A DNA stretch of 64,000 nucleotides from a virus. Its lineage: Duplodnaviria > Caudoviricetes. Location: the IMG/VR virus record IMGVR_UViG_3300029319_000032, positions 165-64,164 of that record; one strand, 5' to 3'. The notes beneath the pieces were generated by a model. That model had not been told where the DNA came from, searched no databases, and saw only the letters and a program-made list of their open reading frames with translations. How positions within the stretch are numbered: position 1 is the stretch's first letter; every line of letters starts with the position of its first letter. Below are positions 29,396 through 49,337 of this stretch, piece after piece. The position numbers and the translations under genes are program-made.

Positions 29396-29415
29396 TGATT
29401 TCGTTTGTGCTTAAA

Positions 29416-29896: not shown

Positions 29897-29898
29897 TG

Positions 29899-30878: not shown

Positions 30879-30967
30879 GTTTACTCCTTTCAAGTGATGC
30901 GTGGGAATCTAGTATGAGATGTAGTAGATGAGCTAAGAGGTATAAGACCCCCACGCTAAGTTATTAA

Positions 30968-32096: not shown

Positions 32097-32307
32097 CGTA
32101 TTCCTCCTCATATAGTTCTATAAATTTATCTACACTCACCCAGCTATCTGAATTACCTTCGTGTACCATTGGTATTCCAGCTGTATCTGGTCTCATCGTA
32201 AAGTCTCCGTAATTATTGCTATTCGCCCAATCCATTAACATAAGGGCAAAGTCCTCTGACCTCACAATATTTTTCACATTTTTTTCCGTTCCAAGTTTCT
32301 TCATCAT
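32068..32307 (-). CDS. Hypothetical protein
   Basis: SD GGAGG; in operon. Confidence 0.5.
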   Translation of the reverse strand: MMKKLGTEKNVKNIVRSEDFALMLMDWANSNNYGDFTMRPDTAGIPMVHEGNSDSWVSVDKFIELYEEEYDGNEKTISV

Positions 32308-33097: not shown

Positions 33098-33257
33098 AAA
33101 AACTCCTTTTTTAAATTTTTCTGGAGTAGGTCGCCAGACCAATGTATTTGCAAAATTTAATTAACAAAGGTGAACAGGGTTAAAACCTGCAACACTCCTT
33201 TTAAGTGCTATTAAATTTTTATCTACAATATCTACTCCAGACTGAAAATCTATGTAT

Positions 33258-33350
33258 AAAAAATAAAAGAGGCAAGAAATAAATCTTGCCCCTTTCCACA
33301 CACACTAAGGAGTTCAATGAAAACATCATTGAAGTTGTCGAATTGACAAC
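33258..33350 (-). ncRNA. Predicted ~93-nt small RNA with an anti-Shine-Dalgarno seed
   Basis: Promoter upstream, two perfect hairpins, unpaired CUCCUUAGUGUGUGUGG, then an intrinsic terminator (GGCAAGA/UCUUGCC plus U-tract). Confidence 0.65.
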
Positions 33351-33355
33351 GCTTT

Positions 33356-33384
33356 AGTTTAACACCATTACTCTATGGTGTCAA
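33356..33384 (-). promoter_or_regulatory. Strong sigma70-type promoter (TTGACA-17-TAAACT, extended -10 TG)
   Basis: Direct match on the minus strand; no minus-strand ORF follows before the terminator. Confidence 0.75.
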
Positions 33385-33389
33385 ATCAA

Positions 33390-33596
33390 TTATAAATTAT
33401 TTTTTAGATTAATTAGTCTATGACCTTTACTCATATCAAACTCTATATCATAGTCTTGCATCAGTCTCACTATCGCATCTTTTTCGTTTTTAGCTACATA
33501 GTGATAGGTAAATGAGTTTTGCTTTTTTGGTATAAAGAATACAAAACTTGCAAGTTTCCCACTATCAATCTTCTTATATGTTTCAATATCTAGCAT
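33390..33596 (-). CDS. Hypothetical early protein
   Basis: SD GAGG; TTGACC upstream at ~33662. Confidence 0.55.
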   Translation of the reverse strand: MLDIETYKKIDSGKLASFVFFIPKKQNSFTYHYVAKNEKDAIVRLMQDYDIEFDMSKGHRLINLKNNL

Positions 33597-33686
33597 CGTT
33601 AAATCCTCATATTGTTATAGTTATAGTCTCTCGTTAATAATATACATTAGTTTTATGGTCAAAGTCTACTATTATTTTGATGCCGT

Positions 33687-33932
33687 TTAAACGCTCTTTG
33701 CGTTATAGATTTTTTGAATTTCTAACAGCTGTTCAGTGAATGCTTTTATAGTATATGGTATATCAATATATACTTTTTTAAATCCTTTGTCATCTGTTTC
33801 CATTACATAAAACAGCTCTTGCTTTACAATCGGTATTGCATTGCTATCTAGATGGTCTTGTAGTTTTTTTACTTTACCTTCAACAGCATCATTATAGTTT
33901 TTGTTTTGTAGTTCTATATTTTTTTCTTTCAT
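33687..33932 (-). CDS. Hypothetical early protein
   Basis: SD GGAGG; stop codon lies inside a GTTTAAAC palindrome. Confidence 0.6.
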   Translation of the reverse strand: MKEKNIELQNKNYNDAVEGKVKKLQDHLDSNAIPIVKQELFYVMETDDKGFKKVYIDIPYTIKAFTEQLLEIQKIYNAKSV

Positions 33933-34195
33933 TCTGCTACCTCCTGTTCAAAAAGATTACCTTGTTGATGGTCGTAAATTGCATCCCAGCTTTCCCAAGT
34001 GTCTTTTACCTCTTTCTCCACGAACTCAATCTCTTTTAACTCTTTGATAGTCTTACATTCTTCAATCTTATTTACATTTTGCCACATTTCCCTTAAGACC
34101 ATATCATCTCCAACTTCAATCATATTTAAATAGTCATTGAAAAATTCATACTTAGCATTTCTTTTTAATTGTTCTATTAGTTTTATTTTTTTCAT
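33929..34195 (-). CDS. Hypothetical early protein
   Basis: SD GGAGG. Confidence 0.6.
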   Translation of the reverse strand: MKKIKLIEQLKRNAKYEFFNDYLNMIEVGDDMVLREMWQNVNKIEECKTIKELKEIEFVEKEVKDTWESWDAIYDHQQGNLFEQEVAE

Positions 34196-34358
34196 TTTCT
34201 TTTCCTCCTAATAGCTGATTGATTGTCATTTAATTCAATAAATTCATATCCAATTTGTTTAAGTTTTTCTATGTATTTTAATTTAACTTTTGGAAAAAAA
34301 TTACCAAATCTTTTTATTGTTTTGTGGTACGCCAGTGCTTTTTTTGAATTGTCTTCTT

Positions 34359-34607
34359 TCATTCTCTTAGTCCTTTCATTTCATCCCAAGTTTGTATATA
34401 CGAACAATAGCTACAAGCTTTCTTACCTCGTTTAAACGCTGTCTTCGTCATAGTGTTAATTCTGTCTATCAAGGTTATTGCTAACTCTTTACGACCTCTG
34501 ATGATGTCTGCTGTACCATCAGTGATTAAATCTATCTCAGTTTCTGATACAAGCTCTTCATCTAAAAAATCTCTTATTGTATTTAAAATCTCTTTATTCG
34601 TCATCAT
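34359..34607 (-). CDS. Hypothetical early protein
   Basis: SD GGAGG; CSYC motif. Confidence 0.55.
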   Translation of the reverse strand: MMTNKEILNTIRDFLDEELVSETEIDLITDGTADIIRGRKELAITLIDRINTMTKTAFKRGKKACSYCSYIQTWDEMKGLRE

Positions 34608-34950
34608 CTACCTCCTCTTTTGTGGTATCGTTTAAACTACTTATCATATCTATCAAATTGTTTTTCATATTGATGAAAGTATCTGGGTCTTTAAAATCAA
34701 TAGATAAACCTCTTTCTTGAACACTACGCAATCTTGCTGGAACGACTTCAGTATCATTACAAAAATTACAGCATCTTCCGTTTGCCAGTGGCTCAGCATT
34801 GTGTCCATTTGTCCATATTGCTACGCCATTTTTGTACAACACATCAAGGGCATCTCCACAAAGCACGCAGAATTTTTTTGCTTTGCCTACAACTTTTTCG
34901 TTCCACTCTCCGTATCCAGTACGGCTATAAAATTTTATCTTATCGCTCAT
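34594..34950 (-). CDS. Hypothetical zinc-binding early protein
   Basis: CVLC...GHNAEP...GRCCNFCN; own promoter TTGACA-18-TAAACT at ~35032. Confidence 0.65.
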   Translation of the reverse strand: MSDKIKFYSRTGYGEWNEKVVGKAKKFCVLCGDALDVLYKNGVAIWTNGHNAEPLANGRCCNFCNDTEVVPARLRSVQERGLSIDFKDPDTFINMKNNLIDMISSLNDTTKEEVDDDE

Positions 34951-35028
34951 TTCAAACTCCTCTGTTAGTTTTAGTGTTTAGCTAGCTTGCTAGCTCTTTG
35001 TTAGTTTAGCTAGTATGTTAGCAACTTG

Positions 35029-35328
35029 TCAAGCATTTTCTCTTAATTTGCTAATTCTATAATCAAACTCTTCTTCTGTTTCGTTTAAACGCTCTAAGTG
35101 TTTATGGTCATCATAGATTTCTCTAGATAGTTTTCTAACTCTACCTTCTCTGTTATCCTCAGTTCTAAAAACAAACCAGCGTTTAACTTCAGTGGTCTGC
35201 CAAGCCATAGCAATAGCCTCATTTATATCTTCATCAGATAAAAATCCCCTTATTTCAATCTCATATTCACAAGTCCATAATCTAGTTTCTTTTATTTTGT
35301 GTGTTTTGCTCATCATCTCCTCCTTCAT
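35029..35328 (-). CDS. Hypothetical early protein
   Basis: ORF track; SD present (true start probably ~35313). Confidence 0.55.
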   Translation of the reverse strand: MKEEMMSKTHKIKETRLWTCEYEIEIRGFLSDEDINEAIAMAWQTTEVKRWFVFRTEDNREGRVRKLSREIYDDHKHLERLNETEEEFDYRISKLRENA

Positions 35329-35491
35329 CTTTAAATATTACAATGGTTGGTATTACATTCAGTACTTGTTTTTTTGCTTTCTTCAGCAATAAATCACCAG
35401 CACTCATAGTGTGTTCAAATGCCCAGTTAGTGTGTCCATACTTATCTCTGCACATCTCATCAATATAATCAGTAATAAATTTAAATTTCAT
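35282..35491 (-). CDS. Hypothetical early protein
   Basis: SD GGAGG. Confidence 0.55.
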   Translation of the reverse strand: MKFKFITDYIDEMCRDKYGHTNWAFEHTMSAGDLLLKKAKKQVLNVIPTIVIFKDEGGDDEQNTQNKRN

Positions 35492-35979
35492 ACTTCCTCC
35501 TTTGTTATGTTATATAAAAATGTTGGTGGTACAAATACCTCTTGTTCCTGTTCCCAATAAACTAAAAAGTCAAGAGCGTTTAAACGACCTGTGTAAACTA
35601 CTGGTTGTTTGTCTTTCTTGACCTTTGCAAACCTAGTTGCAAACCAATAAGCTCTGTTCTTATCCAGTGTCCAGCTAAAGCCGTGTTCATACTCTCCAAG
35701 AGTACCTCTGTATAAGAGTATCTCATCGTGTTCCATCAGTATATCTTCGTATGTTTCATACTCTTTTGTGTTCATACTAAATCCTATATCATCGTAGTGA
35801 TAAGTTAGTATGTCCTGTAAATCTTTGTTCGTCATCATCGTGTGAACATTATCAATAGCTGTGTAGTCTTGTCTGAAATACTGCCAAAACTTTGATGGGG
35901 CTATCTTGTTCTTAGCTAGGTCTTGAACCATCATAGCTATGCCACCCTGTTGGTAGTAGTTGTTTATTATGTCTTCCAT
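35488..35979 (-). CDS. Hypothetical early protein (LYRG...SWT...A-WFA...E-EV motif, ADP-ribosyltransferase-like pattern)
   Basis: An R...S...ExE arrangement is visible; own promoter and SD GGAGG. Confidence 0.45.
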   Translation of the reverse strand: MEDIINNYYQQGGIAMMVQDLAKNKIAPSKFWQYFRQDYTAIDNVHTMMTNKDLQDILTYHYDDIGFSMNTKEYETYEDILMEHDEILLYRGTLGEYEHGFSWTLDKNRAYWFATRFAKVKKDKQPVVYTGRLNALDFLVYWEQEQEVFVPPTFLYNITKEEV

Positions 35980-36069
35980 ATACCCTCCGTGTGTGTTAGT
36001 GAGTTGCTTGACATTAGCCAATCCTACAACCAATGTCAAGCTATTTATTTGACCTCGTTTAAACGATGC

Positions 36070-36381
36070 CTACAACCATATTGAACATTGATTAGTTTGT
36101 AGCTTGAAGATTTTTCTCCAAGCTCTAATCATTAAGTTCCCTACAATCGTTATTACACTTATCCAAGTAAAGAATAACAAGATGCTTTCCAGAAATATAT
36201 GTCCAGCATTTGTTAAGTATGTGTAGTCGTGATGACTTAATAACAGCACTAAAAATACACATACCATTTGAGAGTAGATAAATACGTTCATCAACACTCT
36301 GTTTGTATTTGTTAAAGTTTTACTTAAATCGTTTCTTAATTCCATTGAGTTTTTGCTCATACCTGTTGTTTTATTATTCAT
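36070..36381 (-). CDS. Early membrane protein (2 TM)
   Basis: SD GGAGG before ATG at 36381; two hydrophobic segments. Confidence 0.55.
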   Translation of the reverse strand: MNNKTTGMSKNSMELRNDLSKTLTNTNRVLMNVFIYSQMVCVFLVLLLSHHDYTYLTNAGHIFLESILLFFTWISVITIVGNLMIRAWRKIFKLQTNQCSIWL

Positions 36382-36394
36382 ATTGCCTCCTTTG

Positions 36395-37306
36395 TTAAGC
36401 ACTAATATATCCACTTCTTGACCAGTTCCAATGTTCTCTATCTTGAACAATGTCTAGGTAAGCTGTCTGAAAGCTCTTTGCTTTTTCATTAACGTAGTAA
36501 GATGGGTCGTATCTATGACCTCTGCTGTCTTTACGCTCTTTCTCATAAGCTTGATAGCTGTCAATCAAGTTGCCTAACATACCAGCAAATCTTGACTGCT
36601 CATCATAAGAGCCCTGTCCTATTACATTGATGCAAAGCTGTCTAGCTTTTCTAAACTTCTTCTTGATAATCACTGGGTCGTTTAAACGGCTCTTGTACAT
36701 TGCTGATAATTTTGCCCAGAACTCTTCTTTGATTTGCTTATCGTCTTTCCACTTCAGATTATTTTCTAGGTGTTGTCTTCTCTCGCTTGCTTTGTCTTGA
36801 GCTGTCATATACGGCATATCTTCTTTCAAAGATAAGTGTAAGTATTTGACCACTAATCCATTTCTATTTATTGCTTTTTTAAGACCAGTAATACTTTGTA
36901 AGCCTCTGATGTTTCTACCAAAAGTATGTGTAGAATAAGAGTAAGAACTTTTACCACATATAGTAGCTGTGTATTCTCTGCCTCCGTGTGCTCCTCTATG
37001 TCTAAGCCAATCCTCTCTATACCACAATGGTTTACCATCTTTAAGTACTAATACAACATCATCTTTGTTAATAGAGATGGTCTCATACCAGTTATGACTA
37101 CGACCTCGTAGCTGTCTCCACTCTGCATCCTCTTGAGCAATAACAAACACGATACCTTCTTTTGATATGGTGTCGTTTAAACGGAGCTCATTGTCTTGCA
37201 ATTTGTTCCAATCTATTCCTAGTTTTGCTCCAAGATTTTTAAACCTTCTTAACTGGCGATTAGCATTCCAATGGCTCAGTTTTAAGTTGTTAATTGTTTT
37301 ATTCAT
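36395..37306 (-). CDS. Hypothetical early protein (303 aa)
   Basis: Promoter TTGACA-17-TAGTAT and SD GGAGG upstream. Confidence 0.75.
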   Translation of the reverse strand: MNKTINNLKLSHWNANRQLRRFKNLGAKLGIDWNKLQDNELRLNDTISKEGIVFVIAQEDAEWRQLRGRSHNWYETISINKDDVVLVLKDGKPLWYREDWLRHRGAHGGREYTATICGKSSYSYSTHTFGRNIRGLQSITGLKKAINRNGLVVKYLHLSLKEDMPYMTAQDKASERRQHLENNLKWKDDKQIKEEFWAKLSAMYKSRLNDPVIIKKKFRKARQLCINVIGQGSYDEQSRFAGMLGNLIDSYQAYEKERKDSRGHRYDPSYYVNEKAKSFQTAYLDIVQDREHWNWSRSGYISA

Positions 37307-37333
37307 AATACCTCCTAGTTTATGTGTTAGCTA

Positions 37334-37362
37334 ATACTATTAAATTCTAAAACAAGTGTCAA
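37334..37362 (-). promoter_or_regulatory. Early sigma70-type promoter
   Basis: TTGACA-17-TAGTAT; spacer motif shared with promoters at ~27247, ~36039 and ~38652. Confidence 0.65.
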
Positions 37363-37380
37363 GATTTTTTTTGACCTCGT

Positions 37381-37599
37381 TTAAACGCTCTCTCCCATTT
37401 GTTTCAGTTGTTTGTTTATTCCATCCAACATTATTTCTGCTTGTGTGTTTTCAGTTTCTAATTTAGCATACTCTTGACTTTCTTCATCATAATATCTTCC
37501 ATCAAAATCCTCAAACTCTGTTTCCATTATTCTCTTGTTGCATTGTATCGTAGTCTCGCAACTCTTTTTTATGCTCATTACTATTGTTTTGTAGTCCAT
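37381..37599 (-). CDS. Hypothetical early protein
   Basis: SD GGAGG; ends within a GTTTAAAC palindrome. Confidence 0.6.
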   Translation of the reverse strand: MDYKTIVMSIKKSCETTIQCNKRIMETEFEDFDGRYYDEESQEYAKLETENTQAEIMLDGINKQLKQMGESV

Positions 37600-37627
37600 A
37601 TTATCCTCCTCTCGTTTAAACGCTCTC

Positions 37628-38173
37628 TTACAACAGCTTAGTGCCTACTCCAAATTTATCTTCTACTAACTCATTGATTTTTTTGACTAAATCTCTGTCA
37701 AACAGATAGGCATTACCAACTAATGGTCTGGTAATAGTGTTGTAGTCTCTGAAAAATAAGTCAGCCTCATCCATTAGTTTTATTGTACTACCTATAACAT
37801 CACTCATACTATCAAACTCTCCATTATTAGCGTAAAATCCAATAACATAATATCCTTCCATATCCTTATTAAATCCTCGCTTTTTGTCGTGAGCCCACTG
37901 CCAGCTGTCTGGCTCTTTTACCAAGTGAAATCCAGCTGTTAGCTCTCTGTCATAAAAAGGTATTTGTTTTACTTTGTTTTCTTCACCAGTAATAGCATCG
38001 TAGTTTGCTAAGTCTGGGCTATAAGCAAATAAATGTTGATTAGCCCAAGGGTGCCCTGGAGGTAAAGCTACATAACCACAGCCCCATCCATTTTTATTTG
38101 TTTCTTGTTTTCTAATAGTCCAGTAGTAAGTTGTACCATCTGCTTTTGTTTCTTTTATCCATCTTTCTTTCAT
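37628..38173 (-). CDS. Hypothetical early protein (GWGCGYVALPPGHPW motif)
   Basis: SD GGAGG; motif type common in phage early proteins. Confidence 0.65.
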   Translation of the reverse strand: MKERWIKETKADGTTYYWTIRKQETNKNGWGCGYVALPPGHPWANQHLFAYSPDLANYDAITGEENKVKQIPFYDRELTAGFHLVKEPDSWQWAHDKKRGFNKDMEGYYVIGFYANNGEFDSMSDVIGSTIKLMDEADLFFRDYNTITRPLVGNAYLFDRDLVKKINELVEDKFGVGTKLL

Positions 38174-38194
38174 ATTGTCCTCCTTAGAGCTCGT

Positions 38195-38590
38195 TTAAAC
38201 GCTCTGTGTTTTATTTTTCTTTGTTCCGTTTTCTTTTCTACCAAACATCCAAGCTTTACTAAAATTGTTCAAGCTGTCCAGTGTCTCTGGGTCTGTTGGT
38301 AAAAAAGACATAAGAAATCTTTTTTGTTCTGCTGTTTGACCCCAAGCATCAACATTATTTATAACTGGTCGCATTGGGTTGCTCTCATCTCTTCCAGCAT
38401 CAGAGTAAAGCATATTTAAAGCCATCTCTGCATCTTCAGTTGTCATATTCAAAGTTATATTTCTTTTTGTAAGATGACAAAATATAGTTAAAGTTTTCTT
38501 TTCGTTTAACTCTTTGATAGCCTCTCTAGTGCTTTGTGCTCTTCCGTTGTAGTCTCTCAAAGCTTTTGTAAATCTTTTAGTTATTTTCAT
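38195..38590 (-). CDS. Hypothetical early protein
   Basis: SD GGAGG before ATG at 38590; ends within a GTTTAAAC palindrome. Confidence 0.65.
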   Translation of the reverse strand: MKITKRFTKALRDYNGRAQSTREAIKELNEKKTLTIFCHLTKRNITLNMTTEDAEMALNMLYSDAGRDESNPMRPVINNVDAWGQTAEQKRFLMSFLPTDPETLDSLNNFSKAWMFGRKENGTKKNKTQSV

Positions 38591-38888
38591 ACTGCCTCCT
38601 TTGTGTGTTTTGCAATATGTAGGAAATTTGCAAATTCTAAAGCCAATGTCAAGCAAAAAAATAAAAATATTTTAAAAAAGTTTTCATAGTATAAAAAAGC
38701 TCAGATGTCAAGAACTTTTTTTTTCTGGGTGATTTTGCTCCTCTATAAACGCCAGAGAATAGCCCTAGAACGCAATAAAATAAAAAAAAGGTCTTATGGT
38801 ATGCAAAAAATGTTTTGTCGTCTGAAACTTTGTTCAAATATTCCAGAATTTAGAGCTATAAAAAACACGCTGTTTAAACGCTGTTAAG

Positions 38889-38995
38889 TTATCCACAACT
38901 TATCCACATCATACTTATCCACAAGTTATCCACAAAGTTATTAACAAGTTATCCACATAAAAGTTATCCACATTTTATCCACAATTTGTGGAAAA
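38889..38995. repeat. DnaA-box array (7 perfect TTATCCACA plus 2 degenerate boxes)
   Basis: Perfect boxes start at 38889, 38900, 38915, 38926, 38949, 38964 and 38975; TTATTAACA at 38938; inverted TGTGGAAAA at 38987. Confidence 0.9.
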
Positions 38996-39032
38996 CTTCT
39001 AGACGCTGTTTAAACGCTCTGAAAAAAAGGGC

Positions 39033-39067
39033 AAAAAAAAAGGGCTATTTCTAGCCCTCTTTTTTTA
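39033..39067. terminator. Bidirectional intrinsic terminator flanking the DnaA-box array
   Basis: AGGGCTA-TTTC-TAGCCCT flanked by an A-run and a T-run. Confidence 0.75.
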
Positions 39068-39079
39068 GTTGGTCTTGTT

Positions 39080-39556
39080 TTAGAATGTAAAGCCAGCAAC
39101 ATCTTCTGGCATTACCCAACCGCAAGCTGTGTAAATAGATTTCATATTTTGAAAATCTTTTACGATGCTCTGGCTGGTGTGCTTGCCTCCGCCTATGACA
39201 TATTTTTTATCTGGGTCAATTTCTACAAGCTCTGTTGGTGTAGAAATATATGCTTTACCTTTAATCTGTCTTACTCTACAAGTTAAGCCGTAAGTTTCGA
39301 ACAAGCCGTTTAAACGCTCTCTTGTTGTTCGTGTGTTATAACCAGCTAAAGAGAACCAAAGCCCCTTGCTGATTTTATTGAATTGAGCTATCCAATTATT
39401 ATGAAGATACATATCTGATTGTACAGCGTTCTTCTCCATTTTTGAGCCGTTTAATACTGGCATCTCAATAGTTCTCACTTCTACTCTGGTATTATCCATT
39501 TTCATTGGCTTTTGATTTAAAAAAGCCGTTGCTGTTTTTAGTGTTATTTGTCTCAT
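39080..39556 (-). CDS. Hypothetical early protein (LHNNWIA...TRTTRERLN motif)
   Basis: SD GGAGG; coupled to the upstream ORF. Confidence 0.7.
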   Translation of the reverse strand: MRQITLKTATAFLNQKPMKMDNTRVEVRTIEMPVLNGSKMEKNAVQSDMYLHNNWIAQFNKISKGLWFSLAGYNTRTTRERLNGLFETYGLTCRVRQIKGKAYISTPTELVEIDPDKKYVIGGGKHTSQSIVKDFQNMKSIYTACGWVMPEDVAGFTF

Positions 39557-39777
39557 TATTTCACCTCCTGTGCTGTTTGTAATTCCTCTTCTAAATCCCA
39601 GAGCTTTAATAAGTCTGGGCTAATGCCAGCCTCTACTTCTAAAGGCTGTCCAATGGCTAAATCTCCGTTAATACAAATGTCTCTTTGCTCTTCTATTTTC
39701 CATTTTAAATTTTCTATATCTACTTTAATAATTCCTCTTCTGATATAGTCTAATTTTACTTGTCTTGAATAGGTCAT
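39556..39777 (-). CDS. Hypothetical early protein
   Basis: SD GGAGG; coupled. Confidence 0.6.
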   Translation of the reverse strand: MTYSRQVKLDYIRRGIIKVDIENLKWKIEEQRDICINGDLAIGQPLEVEAGISPDLLKLWDLEEELQTAQEVK

Positions 39778-39923
39778 TATTTCGCCTCCTGTCTTCTAGC
39801 TTTCGCTCTGTTTAAACGCTGTTTAATCTTCTTAGCGTCTCTGTTCTCTCTGGCTTGTCTGCCTTGCTCTGCTTGAGCCTCTAAGCCCTTGATTTGTCTC
39901 AAATTTAAGCCTGTATAATTCAT
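39777..39923 (-). CDS. Small basic early protein (48 aa, MNYTGLNLRQIKG...)
   Basis: SD GAGGAGG; TAATG coupling to the next gene; directly downstream of the hammerhead. Confidence 0.6.
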   Translation of the reverse strand: MNYTGLNLRQIKGLEAQAEQGRQARENRDAKKIKQRLNRAKARRQEAK

Positions 39924-39953
39924 AATACCTCCTCAGTATGTTTGTTAATTTAA

Positions 39954-40020
39954 GCCTAAGACTAGAGACGCCGTTTAAACGACGCCCCCAGTTTCGCCCT
40001 TGTGGGCTCGTCAGTTAGGC
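39954..40020 (-). ncRNA. Hammerhead ribozyme (type I)
   Basis: Minus strand reads GCCUAA-CUGACGA-GCCC(ACAA)GGGC-GAAA-stem III-GUC^UUAGGC: full catalytic core with three paired stems. Confidence 0.9.
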
Positions 40021-40857
40021 ATCCTCCCATTTTAGCTCTTCTGTGATGTTGCCGATGGTGTCGTCAAGGTTTTGCTTGCCGTTCACCTTCTCGTTATCAT
40101 TCACTAAACTAAAAAATTTGTCGATGCTAATAATAGCCTTTCCGTATTTTTTGCCTAGTTGAATATGATACTCTCCTTCACCACAGCATAAACAAGTTCT
40201 GCTTGTCATCTGCTCTATTCTCAAACGATTTGTATTAAATCCGTGGTCGCAATCGTTCTCTGTGCCGTGGCATACAACTTTTAAATTTCTATTCGTATCA
40301 CGGCGTAAGCCCTCAAGGTTTACCTGTCTAAGCGGAAATTTTCCGATAGTCTTAATGATGCCGTTTAAACGACGTTTAAGCTCTTCGCCAGCGTATGTAC
40401 TGGTTAGCTTGCCTTCAAGTCCGATGGTTCTCGCCATCTTGTCGAACGCTCCGCCTTTTCTGTGTCCGCTTTTGTTGTCGTCAATAGCGTGAATTAATTC
40501 GTGAGCTAGTGTGTCCAGAACCTCGACGCTGTTATCTTTTCCAGTCGTTGCGATGTTCATCTGAATAATATTCACAACTTCAGCTTTTGGGCTTGGGTTG
40601 TCTGCTGTTCCTCTGGTGTAAGCCGTTGGGTAGCATCTGCCTAGCGTCGTATGTCCGTGGGTCTTATTCGCTGTCTTCATCTCTGAAACATTGATACGGA
40701 TATTTTTCGGAACTTTAAAGCCGTGCGGTCTAAATACTTTGTCGCTTAGCTCTTGCGTCGCTTTTTCGAACCATTGCGTAACTGCTACGTCGTGGTTCAC
40801 TACTTTAAAGCCTCTAATCTTTTTTGCGTTTGGGGTCGCCACCGCTTGTTTATTCAT
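40015..40857 (-). CDS. SprT-like zinc metalloprotease domain protein
   Basis: TLAHELIHA...GH; C-terminal Cys cluster; first gene of the early operon. Confidence 0.65.
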   Translation of the reverse strand: MNKQAVATPNAKKIRGFKVVNHDVAVTQWFEKATQELSDKVFRPHGFKVPKNIRINVSEMKTANKTHGHTTLGRCYPTAYTRGTADNPSPKAEVVNIIQMNIATTGKDNSVEVLDTLAHELIHAIDDNKSGHRKGGAFDKMARTIGLEGKLTSTYAGEELKRRLNGIIKTIGKFPLRQVNLEGLRRDTNRNLKVVCHGTENDCDHGFNTNRLRIEQMTSRTCLCCGEGEYHIQLGKKYGKAIISIDKFFSLVNDNEKVNGKQNLDDTIGNITEELKWEDA

Positions 40858-40920
40858 TTTATTTCCTTTGTTTATGTGTGTTAAAATCATAAGACAATAT
40901 AACATATTTTACACTTTGTG

Positions 40921-41530
40921 CAAATATTTTTTTTTGTCGTCATAAAATCGGCTCAAATCTGGGGCTCTGGCTTAGGCTGTTTAAACCATCCAAGCTTTAA
41001 ATCTGGGGCTGGTAATATAGGTATTTAGGGTATGTTTAAACGCTGTCTATATATATGGGATGGGTCTGGCTTGGGTCTAGATATAGGAACTATATATAAT
41101 TTCAGGCGTATGAAAATGGTCTGTAATATAATAATAATCTGGCGTTTGTCAAGTGATGCTAGCTCTCCGTCGACAAACAAGTTTCTGAAAAGTTGGCTAG
41201 AAAAGAAATAAAAAATAATGCTTGACTTTGTCATATTCTTGTAAGTCTAACAATATCAAGACTTAATAGCAATCTCAACGAACTTCTAGAAATCCTAACT
41301 AGAAAAAGACTGGGGGGGCGATTTAAAAAAAAGAACCTCACAAATACTTGGGCTATTTTTTTAGTTTGTGTTGTGTCTGGAAGTGTTGATATTGCTAGAG
41401 TTACAGGAACGGCTAACTATATAACTATACTAGCTAGTAGGTTTGTATAGTTATCCTAACTAAAGTTAACAAAAAAAACGGCAGATGTCAAGTACAAAGT
41501 AAGCAAGGGTGTAAAAAATATTATAATTTT
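40921..41530. other. Non-coding divergent switch region (candidate genome end/packaging and promoter region)
   Basis: No credible ORF; transcription direction flips; several TTGAC motifs, AAATCTGGGGCT twice, and a G7 run. Confidence 0.45.
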
Positions 41531-41569
41531 TTTCTTGACTTTTTCCAATCTATAGGTTTAAGCTTTAAT

Positions 41570-41713
41570 ATGTTCAAAGAACCAAATGGAGCAGGTAAGG
41601 GCGATAAACCAAGACCTACATCTATATCTAGAAAACAATACGAAGAACGCTGGGATAAAATCTTTAGAAAGGATAAAAAGAATGCCAATAAAAAAACCAA
41701 AAAAACCAACTAA
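41570..41713 (+). CDS. Small protein (47 aa, GKGDKPRP...YEERWDKIF), probably leaderless
   Basis: TTGACT-18-TAAGCT ends 5 nt before the ATG; no SD. Confidence 0.55.
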   Translation: MFKEPNGAGKGDKPRPTSISRKQYEERWDKIFRKDKKNANKKTKKTN

Positions 41714-41903
41714 AAAAGATATTCTATATCATTTAGCCCTCATTAGACAGGATATATTTAGACTACATGAAAAAACAATGTTAATAGAATCAGTCATTAA
41801 TAAATATATTAAAATGAAAAAAGATACAGATAAATTTAATAAATTTTTACAAGACGAAATAAAGGGAGCTAAAGTTGAAAAAACTAAAGAAGATAAAAAA
41901 TAA
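41682..41903 (+). CDS. Hypothetical protein
   Basis: Part of ORF 41586..41903; likely start MPIKK. Confidence 0.55.
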   Translation: MPIKKPKKPTKKDILYHLALIRQDIFRLHEKTMLIESVINKYIKMKKDTDKFNKFLQDEIKGAKVEKTKEDKK

Positions 41904-42216
41904 AACAATGAAGCTACCTATTAACGGTCACGAGTATACGATTCGTTTTATATCTGGTGCTAAAGTAGACCTAGGTTCAAATGAATCAGAAATACTAGGT
42001 GCTATTTCTATGCGTAACTGTGAAATAGTACTAGAACACGAAATGAAAGACAGTAAACTATTAGAAGTATTAATACATGAAGTATTACATGGTATTACAC
42101 ACGGAACTAGTTTAGACATGACTGAAACACAAGTACAAGTATTAGCAAATAGTTTGTACCAACTTGGTTTTGGTGAATATTTATGGAAAAAAGCAGGAGG
42201 AAAATATGATTCCTAA
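41875..42216 (+). CDS. Small HEXXH metallopeptidase-like protein
   Basis: VLIHEVLHG motif. Confidence 0.6.
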   Translation: MKKLKKIKNKTMKLPINGHEYTIRFISGAKVDLGSNESEILGAISMRNCEIVLEHEMKDSKLLEVLIHEVLHGITHGTSLDMTETQVQVLANSLYQLGFGEYLWKKAGGKYDS

Positions 42217-42535
42217 TTACGATGCAATTATTAAAAAAGCAAAAGCACTGTGTGATGATAAGAATACAGACTATGCACAAATAAAAGAACCATTTTCTAA
42301 CTTTGAAATGGTAGAAGCACTGAAGATTTGTGATGCACCGACTGGCATTCTTGTTCGTATCTCTGATAAAATAGCTAGAATCTCTAATCTCTTGAAGAGA
42401 AATGGAGAAAGAGCTATAGATGAAGAAAAGGTAGAAGACACAATGCTTGATTTGATAAATTATAGTATAATATTATTGAGTTATACTATGTACAGTAAAC
42501 AATATGACTCAGAAAACGGAGAACAGAATGATTAA
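42206..42535 (+). CDS. DUF1599/nucleotide-modification-associated (all-alpha NTP-pyrophosphatase-like) protein
   Basis: KNTDY...GILVRISDKIARI...EDTMLDLINY pattern. Confidence 0.65.
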   Translation: MIPNYDAIIKKAKALCDDKNTDYAQIKEPFSNFEMVEALKICDAPTGILVRISDKIARISNLLKRNGERAIDEEKVEDTMLDLINYSIILLSYTMYSKQYDSENGEQND

Positions 42536-43271
42536 TCCAGGTAAAATATTAGAACACAATACAAAAAAAGCTAAAGTAAACCTACATTGTCTTACAGATA
42601 TACACGTAGGGAGTAAAGTCTTTGACAGAAGTCTGTTTTTAAAAGCAGTACAGATGATAGATGAAGACCCAAATGCACTTTGGTTCGGTAATGGTGATAT
42701 GTTAGAGTTTATTCCACCTAATTATCACATACCAGAAGGCGACCAGTTGTTTGATAACAACGAACAATACGCTCAATTTGTTAAAATGATACGACCTATC
42801 ATGGATAAGTGTGTATTTTTACGTGGAGGTAATCATGATACGCTACGTTCTGTTAGATTAGCAGGAATTGACATAATTCGTGTGCTATGTGACGACCTTG
42901 AAGTACCATATTATCCATTTCCAGGGTATGCAGTGATTAATTACAAGCATAATCGCTTCACATTTGCAAGTGGACATGGAAAAAGTGGTGCAAAAAACGG
43001 AGATTTGGAGCTAACAAGGCTTAGAAACATATTTCCTGACGCTGATATGTATTATTTGGGGCATAACCACCAATTATACGCAAAACCAATAGATTCTTTT
43101 GAAATTATGCAAGATAGCGAAGAAGTAAAAAGACAATGGTTCGTGCGTGGGGGTTCTTTTATAGGATATGCTGAATATGCACGCTATGCTATGTTTGAAC
43201 CACAAACAAAAGGATGGGTAGAAGTGCGTTTAAGTGATAAAGACCCAGAATACATCGTACACCGTAAATGA
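42528..43271 (+). CDS. Calcineurin-like metallophosphoesterase
   Basis: DIHVG, GNGD, GNHD and GHNH metal-binding motifs. Confidence 0.8.
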   Translation: MINPGKILEHNTKKAKVNLHCLTDIHVGSKVFDRSLFLKAVQMIDEDPNALWFGNGDMLEFIPPNYHIPEGDQLFDNNEQYAQFVKMIRPIMDKCVFLRGGNHDTLRSVRLAGIDIIRVLCDDLEVPYYPFPGYAVINYKHNRFTFASGHGKSGAKNGDLELTRLRNIFPDADMYYLGHNHQLYAKPIDSFEIMQDSEEVKRQWFVRGGSFIGYAEYARYAMFEPQTKGWVEVRLSDKDPEYIVHRK

Positions 43272-44062
43272 AGAAAAGAACTATAAAAGGTCAGGAGCAC
43301 ATTGTTTATGACAATATCAACGAGCTCAGGCAGGCTATGCCATTACAAGACGTACTAGAAGAGTGGAGGAATGCTCCAGTAGGTTCATGGACTTTAACAG
43401 ATGATGGGCAGGTTTGTGAGGTGTTAGAACGTGGGGTAATCAACAACGAACGATATGTACGCACAGCGATTGGAATGTTTAACTGTGCTCCTACCATAAA
43501 AATGGAAGGCGAGATGCGTGAAAGCATATACAAGTTTAGTGGAAAGAACTCTAATACTGTATTTAAAGAACGTGTCAAGCCAACAAAGCAAGAATTTTTA
43601 TTTGCTAGATATGTTGCTAAAGGCGATGGGATAATAGAGTCGTTTAAACGAGCTTATCCTAAAGCAAAGTCTGAGCAATATATCAAAGAGCAAAGTAGTA
43701 TGTTGTTAAAAACAGAAAGGATACAAACCTTGATTGATAAAGAAATACAGAAAATACTAGATAAGACAGAGATAACGCCAGAATATCTACTATTAAAGAC
43801 AAAAGAGATTGTAGATAATGTTGAAGCAAGAGATAGCGATAAGATTTCGTCGCTAAAGATGCTAATGGAAATATCTGGGTTACTAGGTAAGAAAGAACAA
43901 AAAACTGAATCTATCGCATTGTTTAAGGGTTTTAGCCCTGAACAACTAGCAGCATTGGAAGGGAAAGATGTCAAACAAATCGCAAGCCAAGAAAGAGAAA
44001 TACCTCAACTGCCAGATGTGCGAGAGGAAAGTGAAGATACAGAAGTCGCCGATAACGTATAG
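43268..44062 (+). CDS. terS: Terminase small subunit (putative)
   Basis: KQEFLFARYV...FKRAYP...SSMLLK HTH-like pattern; upstream of terL. Confidence 0.6.
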   Translation: MKKRTIKGQEHIVYDNINELRQAMPLQDVLEEWRNAPVGSWTLTDDGQVCEVLERGVINNERYVRTAIGMFNCAPTIKMEGEMRESIYKFSGKNSNTVFKERVKPTKQEFLFARYVAKGDGIIESFKRAYPKAKSEQYIKEQSSMLLKTERIQTLIDKEIQKILDKTEITPEYLLLKTKEIVDNVEARDSDKISSLKMLMEISGLLGKKEQKTESIALFKGFSPEQLAALEGKDVKQIASQEREIPQLPDVREESEDTEVADNV

Positions 44063-44204
44063 TGACTTTTTGTTAAATACTATCATGAATATCCCTATGG
44101 ATAAGTACATTACTGTTGATTGTGCGTGTCTTTGTATGTATGACGAAGATATGGACTTGATAGGGTTTAGTAAGGAATTTATAGAAAATAATGGAAAAGC
44201 TTAG
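43968..44204 (+). CDS. Hypothetical Cys-containing protein
   Basis: CQMC and CAC; fills the terS-terL gap. Confidence 0.4.
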   Translation: MSNKSQAKKEKYLNCQMCERKVKIQKSPITYSDFLLNTIMNIPMDKYITVDCACLCMYDEDMDLIGFSKEFIENNGKA

Positions 44205-45756
44205 TTTATCTGATAAGGAGGTGCTGTTACATAAAGCATCTAAAGATTTAATACTGTTTGGTAAGTTGTTTTTACCAAATGATTTTTTACATAAATCAGC
44301 TTCCCCTCCTTTTCACTACGACCTTGGTAAAAAATTAATTAGTACAAAACCTGGAGCACGTATTTGTAATGTGCTTCCAAGAGGTTTTGGAAAATCAGTA
44401 TTAATGAAAGCAGCAATCATGCACAAGCTGTGTTTTACACCAGAAGACCAATCTATGTTTATGGCTTGGGTAGCTGAAGAACAAGGTCAGTCTATTGACC
44501 ACGTCAAGTACATACGTTCCCATTTAGAAACAAATCAAGCTATTAGATATTACTTTGGTAATCTATGTGGGGGTGACATAGGCAAGAGATGGACAGAAAA
44601 AGACTTAATTACTACAAAAGGGCATCGTATTATAGCAAAAGGTACTTCACAGCGTCTTAGAGGTCGTGCTGAGGTAGATACACGTTATACAGGTATTATA
44701 CTAGATGACTTTGAGTCAGAGTTAAATACAAAGACTGCTATACGTAGAGATGAGATTAAACAATGGATTGTATCTACAGTATATCCATCGCTAGAAGAAA
44801 GTCCTGGTAAAGAAGGATGGATATGGTTATCTGGTACGATTGTACACTATGATGCATTCTTACAAAACATTGTAGATGGATGGAAAGAATCAGAAAAGAC
44901 AAAAAAGTCTTATCCGTGGGATGTAACCTTCATTCGTGCTATAGAAGATGGTAAAGCAGCATGGGAAGAACAATTTCCATTGTCTAAGTTAAATCAAAAA
45001 AGAAAAGAATACATAGAGGCAGGTAAAGTAGATAAGTTTGCTCAAGAGTATCTAAACGATGCTAGAGATGCTGCGTCTGCGTCATTTAAGATGGATAATA
45101 TACATTATCACAATTATGAGTTTCATACAGATGGACAGTTTACTTATTTAAGAGATGACAAAGAAATGATACCTATTTACACATACATGGGTGTTGACTT
45201 AGCACATACAGCATCTAATACCTCTGACTATCAAGTAATTGTAGTAATGGGTATGGATGCAGACAAAAACAGATATGTTATAGATTACTATCACGATAAG
45301 ATACCAGCATTTGATATGCCAGAAGAAATATTAAAGATGGCTAAGAAATACTCACCAATACGTAGATGTGCTGTAGAAACAGTAGGTGCACAAGAAATGG
45401 TGCGTGATATGCTAGAACGTATGGCACGTAAAGAAAAAAGATTATTACCTGGTATTAACAAAGGAGTAAGACCTCCACATGGTATTAAAAAAGAAGACAG
45501 GTTAGAAATGTCTTTGGGTAGTATTATCAATAGCAAGAAACTATACATTAAAAAAGAACATTCAGAACTAATAGATGAAATCTTTGAGTTTCCTAAAGGA
45601 AAACATGATGACTTGCTAGATGGATTGTATTATGCAGACTTTTTTGCTAAAGCACCTAGAAGTAGAGTAATACAAAATGATGAGTATGAAAGACCAGATG
45701 ATTTTCCAACACAAGCACGTACAAAAATAAATTGGATGACAGGATTAAAAATATGA
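44191..45756 (+). CDS. terL: Terminase large subunit (copy B)
   Basis: Walker A PRGFGKS, Walker B IILDDFE, GTIVH, MGVDLA, HDDLLDGL. Confidence 0.92.
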   Translation: MEKLSLSDKEVLLHKASKDLILFGKLFLPNDFLHKSASPPFHYDLGKKLISTKPGARICNVLPRGFGKSVLMKAAIMHKLCFTPEDQSMFMAWVAEEQGQSIDHVKYIRSHLETNQAIRYYFGNLCGGDIGKRWTEKDLITTKGHRIIAKGTSQRLRGRAEVDTRYTGIILDDFESELNTKTAIRRDEIKQWIVSTVYPSLEESPGKEGWIWLSGTIVHYDAFLQNIVDGWKESEKTKKSYPWDVTFIRAIEDGKAAWEEQFPLSKLNQKRKEYIEAGKVDKFAQEYLNDARDAASASFKMDNIHYHNYEFHTDGQFTYLRDDKEMIPIYTYMGVDLAHTASNTSDYQVIVVMGMDADKNRYVIDYYHDKIPAFDMPEEILKMAKKYSPIRRCAVETVGAQEMVRDMLERMARKEKRLLPGINKGVRPPHGIKKEDRLEMSLGSIINSKKLYIKKEHSELIDEIFEFPKGKHDDLLDGLYYADFFAKAPRSRVIQNDEYERPDDFPTQARTKINWMTGLKI

Positions 45757-46325
45757 GAAATCGCCTAAAAGGCTGTTTTAAATTAAACAGGGTTATGGTA
45801 TCTGATTATACATTAGAACAATACATTGACTACTTAAAAAGGGTAGAAGGTTACGCAAATAAAGTAGGGGAAAAGTTTTATCCGTACGACTCACCTGAAG
45901 GTGGGTTAAAAACTATTGGGTACGGCTACAAGCTAAAAACGCTTGAAGAACAAAATACTTATGAGAAAACAGGTATGAGCGAAAGAGAGGTAGAAGACCT
46001 CTTGTTGCATGAAGCACAACTATCTGTTGTAAAAGCTAAAAACTTCTGTGTAAGCAGAAATAGAAAATGGTCTGATGTGGATGATAGGCTGAAATATGCC
46101 TTAGCTGATTACTGTTTTAACTTAGGGGGGCTAAAAAAGTTCCCAACTACTGCAAAATTTTTAATGCATAACAATGTAGATGGTGCATTGGAAGACGACC
46201 CAGGAAGACCTGGGTTCAAGCAGTATGAAAGAGTATTTAGAGACCCAGAGGGCAAAAGAAGAAGGTTAGGTAGAAACAAAGAGTTCTACAAAGAATTTTT
46301 ACAACCGTATACGGAGCAGGCATGA
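45753..46325 (+). CDS. T4-type (GH24) lysozyme
   Basis: EG...YPYDSPEGGLKTIGYG and DYCFNLG; start codon uncertain. Confidence 0.75.
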   Translation: MRNRLKGCFKLNRVMVSDYTLEQYIDYLKRVEGYANKVGEKFYPYDSPEGGLKTIGYGYKLKTLEEQNTYEKTGMSEREVEDLLLHEAQLSVVKAKNFCVSRNRKWSDVDDRLKYALADYCFNLGGLKKFPTTAKFLMHNNVDGALEDDPGRPGFKQYERVFRDPEGKRRRLGRNKEFYKEFLQPYTEQA

Positions 46326-46561
46326 AAATAGATACACAAGGTTTAGGAAGAAGACTTTACAACTTTGGCAAAAAGACCAAAGATAAGACAAAAGGATTTA
46401 TGAAAAGATTTACTGTTGAAGCAGAAAATTTAAGAAGAGCAGAATATAATGCTCAAAGAGATGCAGGGAAAGTAGATTATTTACCAACTAGAGGTCTAAT
46501 GAAAGAGCAAAAAGCTATTAAGAAAGATAGAAAACGCAGACAACAAATGAAGGTAAGATAA
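46322..46561 (+). CDS. Small basic hypothetical protein
   Basis: Coupled to the lysozyme and portal genes. Confidence 0.5.
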   Translation: MKIDTQGLGRRLYNFGKKTKDKTKGFMKRFTVEAENLRRAEYNAQRDAGKVDYLPTRGLMKEQKAIKKDRKRRQQMKVR

Positions 46562-48561
46562 TGTCACGAATCAAAGAAGACGATAAAGCAAGAGAAAATA
46601 GAGAAATTTTTCAACGTTATGCAGAAGCTAGAAGAGACTGGGATGTTGAAGCTAGAGACGCAATAGATTTTACACTAGGGAATCATTATACAGAGCAAGA
46701 GTCAGAAGTATTACAATCTGTAGGTCAAGCAGATTTTACTATTGACAGAATCTATGCTGCTATAGATAAGCTAAAATCTCTAATGACATCAAGACCTGTA
46801 AAGTTTGGTGTTACTGCTAGAGAAGATTCAGATACGAAATTAGCTAATGTTTGGAGAACGTTATTAGAATATATCTATGATATATCAGATGGGCAGCATC
46901 ACTTCAAACAAGCTGTACACGATTATGCAACTGCTGGTATTGGTTATTTCTATGCATACGTAGAACCAGAAGCAGATTATGGTAGAGGAGAAGTCATGTT
47001 TACTCATGTCAATCCATTTAGAGTGTACGTAGACCCTGCTTCTAGAGACAGGTATTTTAAAGATGCTGCAAACATTTTAATGTCTACTATCTTAACTAAA
47101 GAGCAATTATTAGACTTATACCCAGATGTAGAAGAGTTTCTACCAAACATTGAAACACATAATATGTCTGACTATTATGATGATTACCCTGACTCGCAGC
47201 AGAAAAACTCACAGAATGTATTTACACCTGCTGAAGTAGAAGATAAAGATTATGAAAGTACAATAGCACAACGTTATCGTATTATTGAACGTTTCAGTAA
47301 AGTAAGAGTGCCTTACTACAGAGTAGCTGACCAACAAAACAATACTGAAACAATTATGAGTGCAGAAGCATTTCAAATATTTATGGCTGAAAATGAAGCT
47401 CAGTTTAATAACAATACTTATGCTTTTGTAGAAATACCACAAACAAGAATTAAAGTTACAGCATCATTAGGACAAGTCCTTCTATATGAAACTATATTGG
47501 ACACTGATACTTATCCTATCGTTCCTATACCAAATATATGGACTAATACACCATATCCTAAATCAGATGTGAATAAAGTTAAAGATATGCAGAGACTACT
47601 TAATAAATTATTCTCTCTTGCATTATCTCATGCTCAAACTTCTGCTGGTCTAAAACTATTAGTACCACAAGGAAGTGTGGAAAGTATTTCACAACTTGAG
47701 AAAGATTGGGCTAATCCTAATGCTGTAATAGAATATGACCCAAGTTATGGAGAACCACATTTTCCTTCTCCACAACCTTTAACAAGTCAGTTCTATGCTC
47801 TTATTAATCAAGTAGAGCGTTATATTGACTTAAACTTCGGAGTTCCTGAGCTATTACAGGGGTTCAAAGAAGGTGCACCTCAAAGTGTACGTGGCACAAT
47901 GCTACTAGCACAAATGGGAGAAGGTCGTGGTGCTTCTAAGTTGCGTGACATTGAAATGGCATTGCAACAGCTTGGGAAAGTATTATATCAAATGTCTAAA
48001 GAACATTACACATTTGAAAAGAAATTTAGAATCGTACAACCAAACAATGATATTACACAGTTTGCTATTAACAATAGATTGTATGATGATAAAACAAAAG
48101 AATTGGTCAAAATAGAAAATGATATTACTTCAGGACAGTTTGATGTTCGTGTTGTTTCAGGTTCAACAATGCCTAATAACAAACACGCTGAATATCAAAT
48201 GTATCTAGAAGCATATCAGTTAGGATTGATTGATAGAACCGAAGCGTTAAAGAAAACAGAAATCTTTGACAAAGAAGGTGTCTTGCAACGTACTGGCGAA
48301 GTACAAAGAATGCAAGGTATTATTAGTCAATTACAAGACCAGATAAAACTTCTATCTGGAGATTTACAAACTGCCCAGAGAGAGTCTATGTCTGACAGAA
48401 AACGTGTTGAGGTACAGAAATTTAAATCTGAACTTAATAAAGTGGTTACTGGAGCAAAGGCTCAACAGAAAGTAAATACAGAGAGAACCAAACGTCAACA
48501 AGAACAACAGGTGCAGGCTGGAATAAATTCATTACTGTCAGAAGATATTGGTGAACAATAA
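46561..48561 (+). CDS. Portal protein, copy B
   Basis: Colinear paralogue of 868..2871. Confidence 0.85.
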   Translation: MSRIKEDDKARENREIFQRYAEARRDWDVEARDAIDFTLGNHYTEQESEVLQSVGQADFTIDRIYAAIDKLKSLMTSRPVKFGVTAREDSDTKLANVWRTLLEYIYDISDGQHHFKQAVHDYATAGIGYFYAYVEPEADYGRGEVMFTHVNPFRVYVDPASRDRYFKDAANILMSTILTKEQLLDLYPDVEEFLPNIETHNMSDYYDDYPDSQQKNSQNVFTPAEVEDKDYESTIAQRYRIIERFSKVRVPYYRVADQQNNTETIMSAEAFQIFMAENEAQFNNNTYAFVEIPQTRIKVTASLGQVLLYETILDTDTYPIVPIPNIWTNTPYPKSDVNKVKDMQRLLNKLFSLALSHAQTSAGLKLLVPQGSVESISQLEKDWANPNAVIEYDPSYGEPHFPSPQPLTSQFYALINQVERYIDLNFGVPELLQGFKEGAPQSVRGTMLLAQMGEGRGASKLRDIEMALQQLGKVLYQMSKEHYTFEKKFRIVQPNNDITQFAINNRLYDDKTKELVKIENDITSGQFDVRVVSGSTMPNNKHAEYQMYLEAYQLGLIDRTEALKKTEIFDKEGVLQRTGEVQRMQGIISQLQDQIKLLSGDLQTAQRESMSDRKRVEVQKFKSELNKVVTGAKAQQKVNTERTKRQQEQQVQAGINSLLSEDIGEQ

Positions 48562-48584
48562 CAGCACATCGGAAGGAAAATAAA

Positions 48585-49319: not shown

Positions 49320-49337
49320 ACGTAAAGGGGAATTAAA

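Follow-up and report, generated by a model that had tools for sequence, protein, structure and literature searches.

Gene neighborhood of the ribozyme

The window (the whole 64,000-nt stretch of viral DNA analyzed here) contains genes on the plus strand at positions 33-26589 and 41586-58617 and a block of minus-strand genes that runs from 40905 down to 26756. The first gene of this leftward block adjoins the divergent gap 40905-41586 and encodes an SprT-like protein. Its longest ORF spans positions 40015 to 40905 on the minus strand (296 aa); judging from the N termini of its relatives, the true start is probably at 40857. This ORF matches the SprT-like family of Pfam with an E value of 3.5e-5 and a score of 24 bits, which is under the cutoff of 25.6, and the PHROG family phrog_6361 with an E value of 1.4e-21; the assignment is also supported by related sequences. 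The next gene on the same strand (39777 to 39923) codes for a basic protein of 48 aa, which has no match in Pfam or PHROG and is conserved in seven viral contigs; its ribosome-binding site (RBS), GAGGAGG, is at 39928 to 39934. At the junction of these two genes lies a type I hammerhead ribozyme of 67 nt (39954 to 40020, minus strand), which is recognized by its sequence, its fold, a structural descriptor, and an independent covariance model (CM).

The 48-aa gene is followed on the minus strand by a gene for a 73-aa protein (39556-39777) and by one for a 158-aa Kyano_Gp96-like protein (39080-39556; Pfam ID PF23790, E value of 5.7e-8). A consensus scan finds a terminator-like hairpin with a T run at 39032 to 39067, which is the likely end of the unit. 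In the same type of scan, the best upstream match to a sigma-70-like promoter is TTGACA-16-TATATT at 41125 to 41152 (11 of 12 consensus positions, minus strand), and a weaker match (9 of 12) is found at 40896 to 40924. Such promoter matches are weak evidence, because 24 sites are found in the region against 18.6 expected. As read from the sequence, the transcription unit would consist of the promoter, the SprT-like gene, the ribozyme, the 48-aa, 73-aa, and Kyano_Gp96-like genes, and the terminator; it would be about 1.9 to 2.1 kb long, with the predicted ribozyme cut near its middle. A DnaB-like helicase is encoded further down the same minus-strand block, so that an "early" timing of the leftward transcript, which is judged from gene position only, is plausible by analogy.

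Several repeats are seen at or near this locus. An 11-nt direct repeat, AGGCTTAAATT, is present on the minus strand at 39957-39947, where it covers part of the stem I 3' strand and of the leader, and again at 39912-39902, within codons 4 to 7 of the 48-aa gene. Pairing between these copies, G-U pairs included, is seen in the minimum free energy (MFE) fold of the predicted 3' product, for which the z score is only -1.7. A stretch at about 37295-37329 resembles 39912-39947 on the same strand (83% similarity); both are RBS and start codon contexts, the former belonging to a 303-aa gene (36395-37306) and the latter to the 48-aa gene (AGGAGGTATTATGAA). On a larger scale, positions 1-18220 and 45032-64000 of the window are two collinear, diverged copies (68-97% DNA identity) of a terminase-end/portal/head/tail module, whose portal proteins are 63% identical. 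Since the related contigs are 25 to 43 kb long, these collinear copies indicate that the 64-kb record is probably not a single genome but an assembly that joins two related ones, each of about 45 kb. It contains the ribozyme locus once.

Structure and conservation of the hammerhead

Read on the minus strand, the ribozyme begins with the 5' strand of stem I, GCCUAA (40015 to 40020), and the core segment C3-A9, CUGACGA (40008 to 40014), in which N7 is the C at 40010. These are followed by stem II (39996 to 40007), which has 4 bp (GCCC/GGGC) and the tetraloop ACAA with an A at L2.4 (40000), and by the core residues G12, A13, and A14 (39993 to 39995). Stem III (39961 to 39992) comprises 14 pairs counted from A15.1-U16.1, including four G-U pairs, and reads A-CUGGGGGCGUCG-UUUAAA-CGGCGUCUCUAG-U. 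Its tip, GUUUAAAC (39973 to 39980), is one of the GTTTAAAC copies of the window. C17 of the GUC triplet is at 39960; under the numbering convention for hammerheads described in the methods of PMC3088659, the bond predicted to be cut links this base to 39959. Stem I is completed by UUAGGC (39954 to 39959), its 3' strand, which forms the 5' end of the predicted 3' product, and with the next start codon at 39923, the leader 39959 to 39924 would be 36 nt long. The first unpaired base past the 6-bp stem I is U1.7 (39953), which stands opposite U2.7 (40021). The TAA stop codon of the SprT-like ORF (40017-40015) lies inside the 5' strand of stem I, as its bases 4 to 6. The original prediction had drawn the stems, the core, and the GUC triplet in the same way, and both the sequence and the ORF coordinates agree with its placement of the cut site, the 36-nt leader, the stop codon in stem I, and the palindrome in stem III.

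All elements of the hammerhead consensus listed in the methods of PMC3088659 are present, namely, C3 U4 G5 A6 N7 G8 A9, G12-A14, A15.1-U16.1, and H17, which is C. The core-adjacent pairs A2.1-U1.1, G10.1-C11.1, and A15.1-U16.1 are all standard, and the topology is that of type I: both ends enter via stem I, while stems II and III are hairpins. The motif at 40020 to 39954 agrees with all testable sequence and structure criteria of a hammerhead, except for the Rfam score thresholds.

Both the MFE and the centroid folds of the 67-mer are the hammerhead three-way junction with stems of 6, 4, and 14 bp. The folding energy is -32.7 kcal/mol (z score of -4.74), and none of 200 shuffled sequences is equally stable. 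In a context of 191 nt, the MFE structure (ensemble frequency of 0.006) has no stem I, whose 5' strand pairs with the RBS region instead, and the centroid retains only stems II and III. This alternative pairing was considered as a conserved switch and rejected, as inspection shows the complementarity to be lost in the RBS regions of three relatives (L110, L113, and L114).

A scan with a deliberately lax descriptor (CUGANGA, a stem II hairpin of at least 3 bp, GAA, an A...U-closed stem III of at least 4 bp, H17, and a stem I of at least 5 bp), whose stem lengths are far laxer than those at the site, finds exactly one site on both strands of the 64-kb window. When the window is shuffled with its dinucleotides preserved, just 1 of 200 shuffles contains any descriptor site. 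An independent CM, R1, was trained on hammerheads from other, unrelated viral contigs, with none from the family of this ribozyme. Its source was a set of 50 distinct type I hammerheads from outside the family, all having a stem I of 6 bp, and 22 of these have a stem III of 14 or 16 nt; the 13 with a 16-nt stem III, which give a gapless alignment, make up the training set. With all filters off, R1 scores the window site at 45.7 bits (E value of 4.1e-13), although the training hammerheads lack the stem III tip. The second-best match in the window reaches 11.9 bits (E value of 0.34), and therefore the window contains one hammerhead of this class.

Rfam hammerhead models, to which the original prediction had looked for confirmation, do not recognize the site. 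A search of the whole window at gathering scores gives no matches, and in E-value mode on 271 nt the best families are RAGATH-1-hammerhead (RF03152) with 18.8 bits against a cutoff of 56.3 and Hammerhead_HH9 (RF02275) with 16.9 bits against a cutoff of 52. Because the independent class-specific model assigns such a low E value, this failure reflects a sensitivity gap of those models.

Related contigs were recovered from IMG/VR via the SprT-like protein and via the 48-aa protein; a family-specific DNA pattern recovers six contigs, all within the protein-recovered set. Seven other viral contigs carry the element at the same junction, in the order SprT-like gene, ribozyme, 48-aa gene. An SprT-like homologue with the HExxH motif lies 5' of the ribozyme in all seven, and the gene for the 48-aa protein, which is 88 to 94% identical, is always 3' of it. 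Searches with R1 find 13 matches in 13 loci of seven contigs, one per locus, at 41 to 60 bits. In all seven relatives, L114 included, the upstream ORF stops at the stem I TAA, so that the ribozyme always begins with the last sense codon and TAA. The C-terminal tails of the SprT-like proteins differ strongly, and the DNA coding for them just upstream is strongly diverged in L004/L005 and L110-L114, with the ribozyme nearly unchanged. A location of the ribozyme behind different upstream genes was ruled out: the ORFs of L110-L114 translate as SprT-like homologues with diverged C termini. Outside this group, a blastn search with positions 39700-40400 of the window against isolated phages and a tblastn search with a 411-aa ORF of the window (7298-8533) give no match.

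In the eight family sequences, the core is invariant except for N7 (C, A, or U); G12, A13, and A14 are invariant, and the last base of loop II is always A. Standard pairs occupy 97.9% of the 190 pair cells of the alignment, compared to 35 to 48% when the 3' partners are slid by one to three columns; for stem III, the paired share is 97.3%. Two of the four unpaired cells belong to L114, where MAFFT put a one-pair deletion out of register; aligned by hand, its stem III is fully paired. Three pairs, one in stem III and two in stem II, show compensatory changes on both sides; in stem II, C-G is replaced by U-A and by G-C (L112 and L114). Four further stem III pairs show one-sided changes from G-U to A-U or G-C. 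None of 500 shuffles reaches the covariation score of the alignment. Stem I shows no covariation in the family, with five of its six pairs invariant and one broken in L114. Because the eight sequences are closely related, the family-level covariation support is modest, and the evidence at the level of the wider class is stronger: there, stem I occurs in 38 distinct sequences, varying freely yet remaining paired.

The stem III tip and the wider class

The palindrome GTTTAAAC at the stem III tip is found in 28 copies in the window, at 19307-51216, compared to 2.18 expected, and 24 of these lie within 27297-41041, which gives a density of about one per 500 bp in the leftward gene block. Most copies have the form CGTTTAAACG, with the minus-strand consensus being about AGAGCGTTTAAACGA. 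They occur in all three reading frames (encoding RLN, S/A-FK, or ...SV-stop) as well as between genes. Related contigs contain 5 to 17 copies per locus, compared to 0.13 to 0.42 expected, with enrichment in L003-L005, L014, L020, L033, L082, L083, L110, and L112-L115; unrelated hammerhead loci show no such enrichment (19 copies in 887 kb versus 12.5 expected). In the ribozyme family, the tip bases CGTTTAAAC are invariant in all eight sequences except for a C-to-T change of the first base in L109, which is the base before GTTTAAAC; elsewhere stem III varies. This distribution points to GTTTAAAC as a nucleic acid-level signal specific to this phage group, and the stem III tip probably serves a second purpose in common with the other copies. 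Two copies are located about 16 to 18 nt 5' of TTGACA boxes (near 37379 and 36057).

The core pattern CTGANGAGCCCNNNNGGGCGAAAC, with 19 specified bases, matches 102 stretches of IMG/VR contigs; in species-representative prokaryote genomes, which amount to 596 Gb, it matches 22. The viral matches correspond to 88 distinct sites, of which 58 parse as type I and 22 as type III hammerheads, with 8 unparsed. The type III sites come from GC-rich viral contigs (e.g., L030, L034, L053, L080, and L107). In these, the 3' side of stem III continues straight into an RBS and a start codon, an arrangement that would place the cut upstream of the whole ribozyme and leave the ribozyme on the downstream mRNA.

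Relaxing the stem II sequence brings the viral type I set to 64 distinct hammerheads. Of these, 57 have a stem I of 6 bp, 6 have one of 5 bp, and a single one has 7 bp. Loop II's final base and base 1.7 are A/U in 40 of them, U/A in 19, and other combinations in 5; counted by distinct stem I sequence, these numbers are 23, 11, and 4 (38 in all). Ten of the 22 prokaryote-genome loci parse as type I (A/U in 7, with U/A, G/C, and A/A in 1 each). In the pooled set of 64 plus 10, stem I has 6 bp in 65 of the 74 hammerheads, and the two positions are A/U in 47, U/A in 20, G/C in 1, G/U in 1, and noncomplementary in 5. Judged from these counts, loop II's last base and base 1.7 behave like a base pair across the type I class. 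Base 2.7 follows the same division: the U/A group has A there, and the A/U group has U or C, with the exception of L073 and L114, which have A.

The ribozyme of the window has the A/U combination, with A40000 as the last base of loop II and U39953 as base 1.7. According to PMC11875169, the AL4:U1.7 contact is present in the Schistosoma and sTRSV crystal structures, and an unpaired U1.7 touching the fourth tetraloop base is reported there, citing O'Rourke 2015, to be enough for high rates in short hammerheads. U1.7 is a candidate tertiary partner of A4 of loop II. Having both bases, and given this putative contact, the motif probably does not belong with the "minimal" hammerheads, for which slow cleavage in cells would be expected. 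The U:A version of the contact, with the bases swapped, may be undescribed, and the compact phage type I class as such may already figure in the supplementary alignments of Perreault 2011.

Of the 56 distinct type I hammerheads outside the family, 43 are preceded by an ORF of 60 codons or more that ends nearby and 13 are not. The upstream stop codon overlaps stem I or is the core UGA in 22 of these 43 cases; in 8 of the 43 (e.g., L015, L050, L061, L066, L067, and L070), it is the UGA of CUGANGA itself. The stop lies 9 to 20 nt 5' of C3 in 11 cases, more than 20 nt upstream in 9, and downstream in 1; this count leaves out the row L094, which was dropped by the family filter. With the overlap shared by 22 of 43 hammerheads outside the family, the position of the stop codon in stem I characterizes the class and is not special to the locus in the window. 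Tight gene packing explains this overlap equally well.

Proposed role, alternatives, and known systems

The locus probably encodes a genuine type I hammerhead, which is kept by selection and most likely splits the leftward operon mRNA of a tailed phage of about 45 kb. The observed basis of this reading is the motif, its fold and statistical significance, and its conservation, covariation, and synteny; from these we infer that the RNA is cleaved in vivo, that the tertiary contact forms, and what cleavage would mean physiologically. The most likely outcome is the splitting of the leftward operon mRNA by the hammerhead, leaving a 36-nt leader with a 5'-OH. The three-way junction would fold once the 3' strand of stem I is transcribed, and the unpaired U1.7 would dock on the final A of the tetraloop that caps stem II. 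The 2'-OH of C17 (39960) would then attack the next phosphate. By the established chemistry of hammerheads, the upstream SprT-like mRNA would end in a 2',3'-cyclic phosphate one base past the 14-bp stem III hairpin, and the downstream three-gene mRNA would start with a 5'-OH at UUAGGC, 36 nt before the next start codon. Less securely, the two halves of the operon may gain independent stability and translation. Termination at the TAA would bring ribosomes into the 5' half of the motif and unfold it, which makes the efficiency in vivo uncertain. According to PMC3088659, hammerheads located next to genes in phages and prophages cleave in vitro and in Escherichia coli and have been proposed to cut long phage transcripts into gene-length mRNAs; the possible independence of the two halves fits that proposal.

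Six metatranscriptome runs match the locus, each with 5 to 7% of the words, and the contigs of X1, X3, X4, and X5 were examined. Contigs of X1, X3, and X5 end at about 40010-40023, at the 5' edge of the ribozyme; as these sequences are assemblies, where they stop says nothing about RNA ends. Downstream of the ribozyme, the contigs of X3 and X5, which are likewise assembled from libraries that possibly contain DNA, reach only to about 39924-39929. One assembled contig of X4, from a library possibly containing DNA, covers 39942-40001, across the predicted cut. The contig stops are attributed to assembly, because divergent coding sequence meets a ribozyme common to several strains and the graphs branch there.

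A chance likeness to the hammerhead consensus, which would agree with the unmet Rfam gathering thresholds, is vanishingly improbable. It is refuted by the descriptor shuffles (1 of 200), the family covariation, and the independent CM (E value of 4.1e-13), as well as by the presence of the motif at the same junction in seven other contigs with structure-preserving changes. It is also very unlikely that the locus forms a structured RNA or DNA element that is mainly not self-cleaving, with an inactive or incidental hammerhead core. In such an element, the CGUUUAAACG tip, as a GTTTAAAC site, would be a protein-binding or processing signal or a hairpin that stabilizes the 3' end, in keeping with the excess of GTTTAAAC (28 copies versus 2.18 expected), the equal enrichment in the relatives, and the near invariance of the tip bases CGTTTAAAC among the variable positions of stem III. 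However, it leaves unexplained the conservation of the 13 core bases, of stems I and II, and of the GUC triplet; the sole core variation falls on the free N7, the stem II changes are compensatory, and a model built from hammerheads lacking this tip gives an E value of 4e-13. Self-cleavage and a role of the tip are not exclusive and can coexist.

The original prediction linked the ribozyme to translation and to a small RNA (sRNA). In a reading of this kind, ribosomes finishing the SprT-like ORF would keep the ribozyme unfolded, because the stop codon lies in stem I; cleavage would then be tied to upstream translation or serve as its readout, and it would act together with an sRNA at the downstream RBS. 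As a substitute for simple splitting of the mRNA, this is unlikely, if less so than the two preceding alternatives. In all seven relatives, as in the window, the TAA forms bases 4 to 6 of the 5' strand of stem I, and the stop codons in stem I or in the core UGA in 22 of 43 hammerheads outside the family, with 11 more no farther than 20 nt upstream, are consistent with selection. The compact packing of phage genes, however, predicts the same pattern, and the stop is more than 20 nt upstream in 9 of 43 cases, with no ORF of at least 60 codons in 13 of 56. The sRNA part of the idea finds no partner: the RBS leader of the 48-aa gene occurs once in the window at up to three mismatches, and it is in none of the best 25 (the longest) of the 55 inverted repeats in 36000-42000. 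The similar stretch at about 37295-37329 is on the same strand, so that it repeats the RBS context and cannot serve as an antisense partner. If the hammerhead did act as a translation sensor, which is unlikely, terminating ribosomes would hold it unfolded, and cleavage of the operon mRNA would be confined to times when the first gene is no longer translated; the downstream genes would then pass to an mRNA of their own with a 5'-OH. The stop codon placed in the stem, as in about half of the class, would in that case mark a general ribozyme switch gated by translation, which in this phage group might be further modulated by a factor recognizing the CGUUUAAACG tip of stem III.

For the preferred reading, an mRNA-splitting hammerhead, the closest known systems are the type I hammerheads of phages and prophages (Perreault 2011, PMC3088659; Rfam clan CL00010). 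These share the core, the three-helix junction, and the setting between genes, and cleavage is demonstrated in that work for several of them. Unlike the set described there, the ribozyme of the window has an unusually long stem III of 14 bp with a palindrome found genome-wide, and it scores under the Rfam thresholds. The HHphage ribozyme of haloviruses HF1/HF2 likewise lies just upstream of a start codon, by 13 nt compared to 36 nt here; it belongs to a polycistronic early-region transcript, with a 5' end mapped within three nucleotides of the cut site (PMC3088659). As described in the same source, HHphage is a core or structural variant from an archaeal virus that needs high Mg2+, whereas the core in the window is canonical. 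The minimal AL4:U1.7 hammerhead of O'Rourke, Estell, and Scott (2015), as presented in PMC11875169, has the same 4-bp stem II with an A-ending tetraloop and the same 6-bp stem I followed by an unpaired U at 1.7, a design reported to reach high rates with no need of large peripheral loops. That construct is engineered and acts in trans, whereas the ribozyme of the window is natural and lies in cis in an mRNA, with its contact suggested by sequence and class covariation.

The core and stems of the window ribozyme align with RF03152 and RF02275, the best Rfam alignments, although it lacks the long stem I of HH9 and the upstream hairpin and 1-bp stem II of RAGATH-1. It does not belong to RAGATH-1: the upstream hairpin aligns with nonstandard pairs, and stem II is a regular 4-bp helix. 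In synthetic ribozyme insulators such as RiboJ, a hammerhead placed before the RBS gives a defined 5'-OH leader that is independent of the upstream sequence. The ribozyme of the window would work like such an insulator, setting a predicted 5'-OH leader before the RBS; RiboJ was engineered from a plant satellite RNA ribozyme and is not a natural phage element.

Hammerheads are common in phages, those between the genes of phages and prophages have been known since 2011, and the element described here is another example; their biological role is described as open in PMC6155905 and PMC3088659. What it offers is a clean single-copy case, a ribozyme in a fixed place in eight related viral genomes, with a canonical core, a putative minimal tertiary contact, and a built-in stop codon and leader of the neighboring genes. 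With these features at a fixed locus, operon splitting and translation gating are directly testable with a 200-nt construct. The Rfam gathering thresholds miss the compact phage type I class, which a single 19-base core pattern finds. Some modest added interest lies in the single-copy fixed synteny and in the AL4:U1.7 design, which occurs naturally, along with the swapped U:A variant, in a large phage class, and also in the frequent overlap with upstream stop codons and in the genome-wide palindrome at the stem III tip.

The ribozyme is single both in the window and in the related loci, whereas PMC3088659 stresses clusters and describes prophage hammerheads flanking single genes. Among the viral contigs recovered here, L042, L074, L046, and L103 have two or three type I hammerheads that are 0.8 to 1.1 kb apart and surround single genes; those of L042 are at 8773-8825 and 9886-9938, and those of L074 are at 4293-4345 and 5097-5149.
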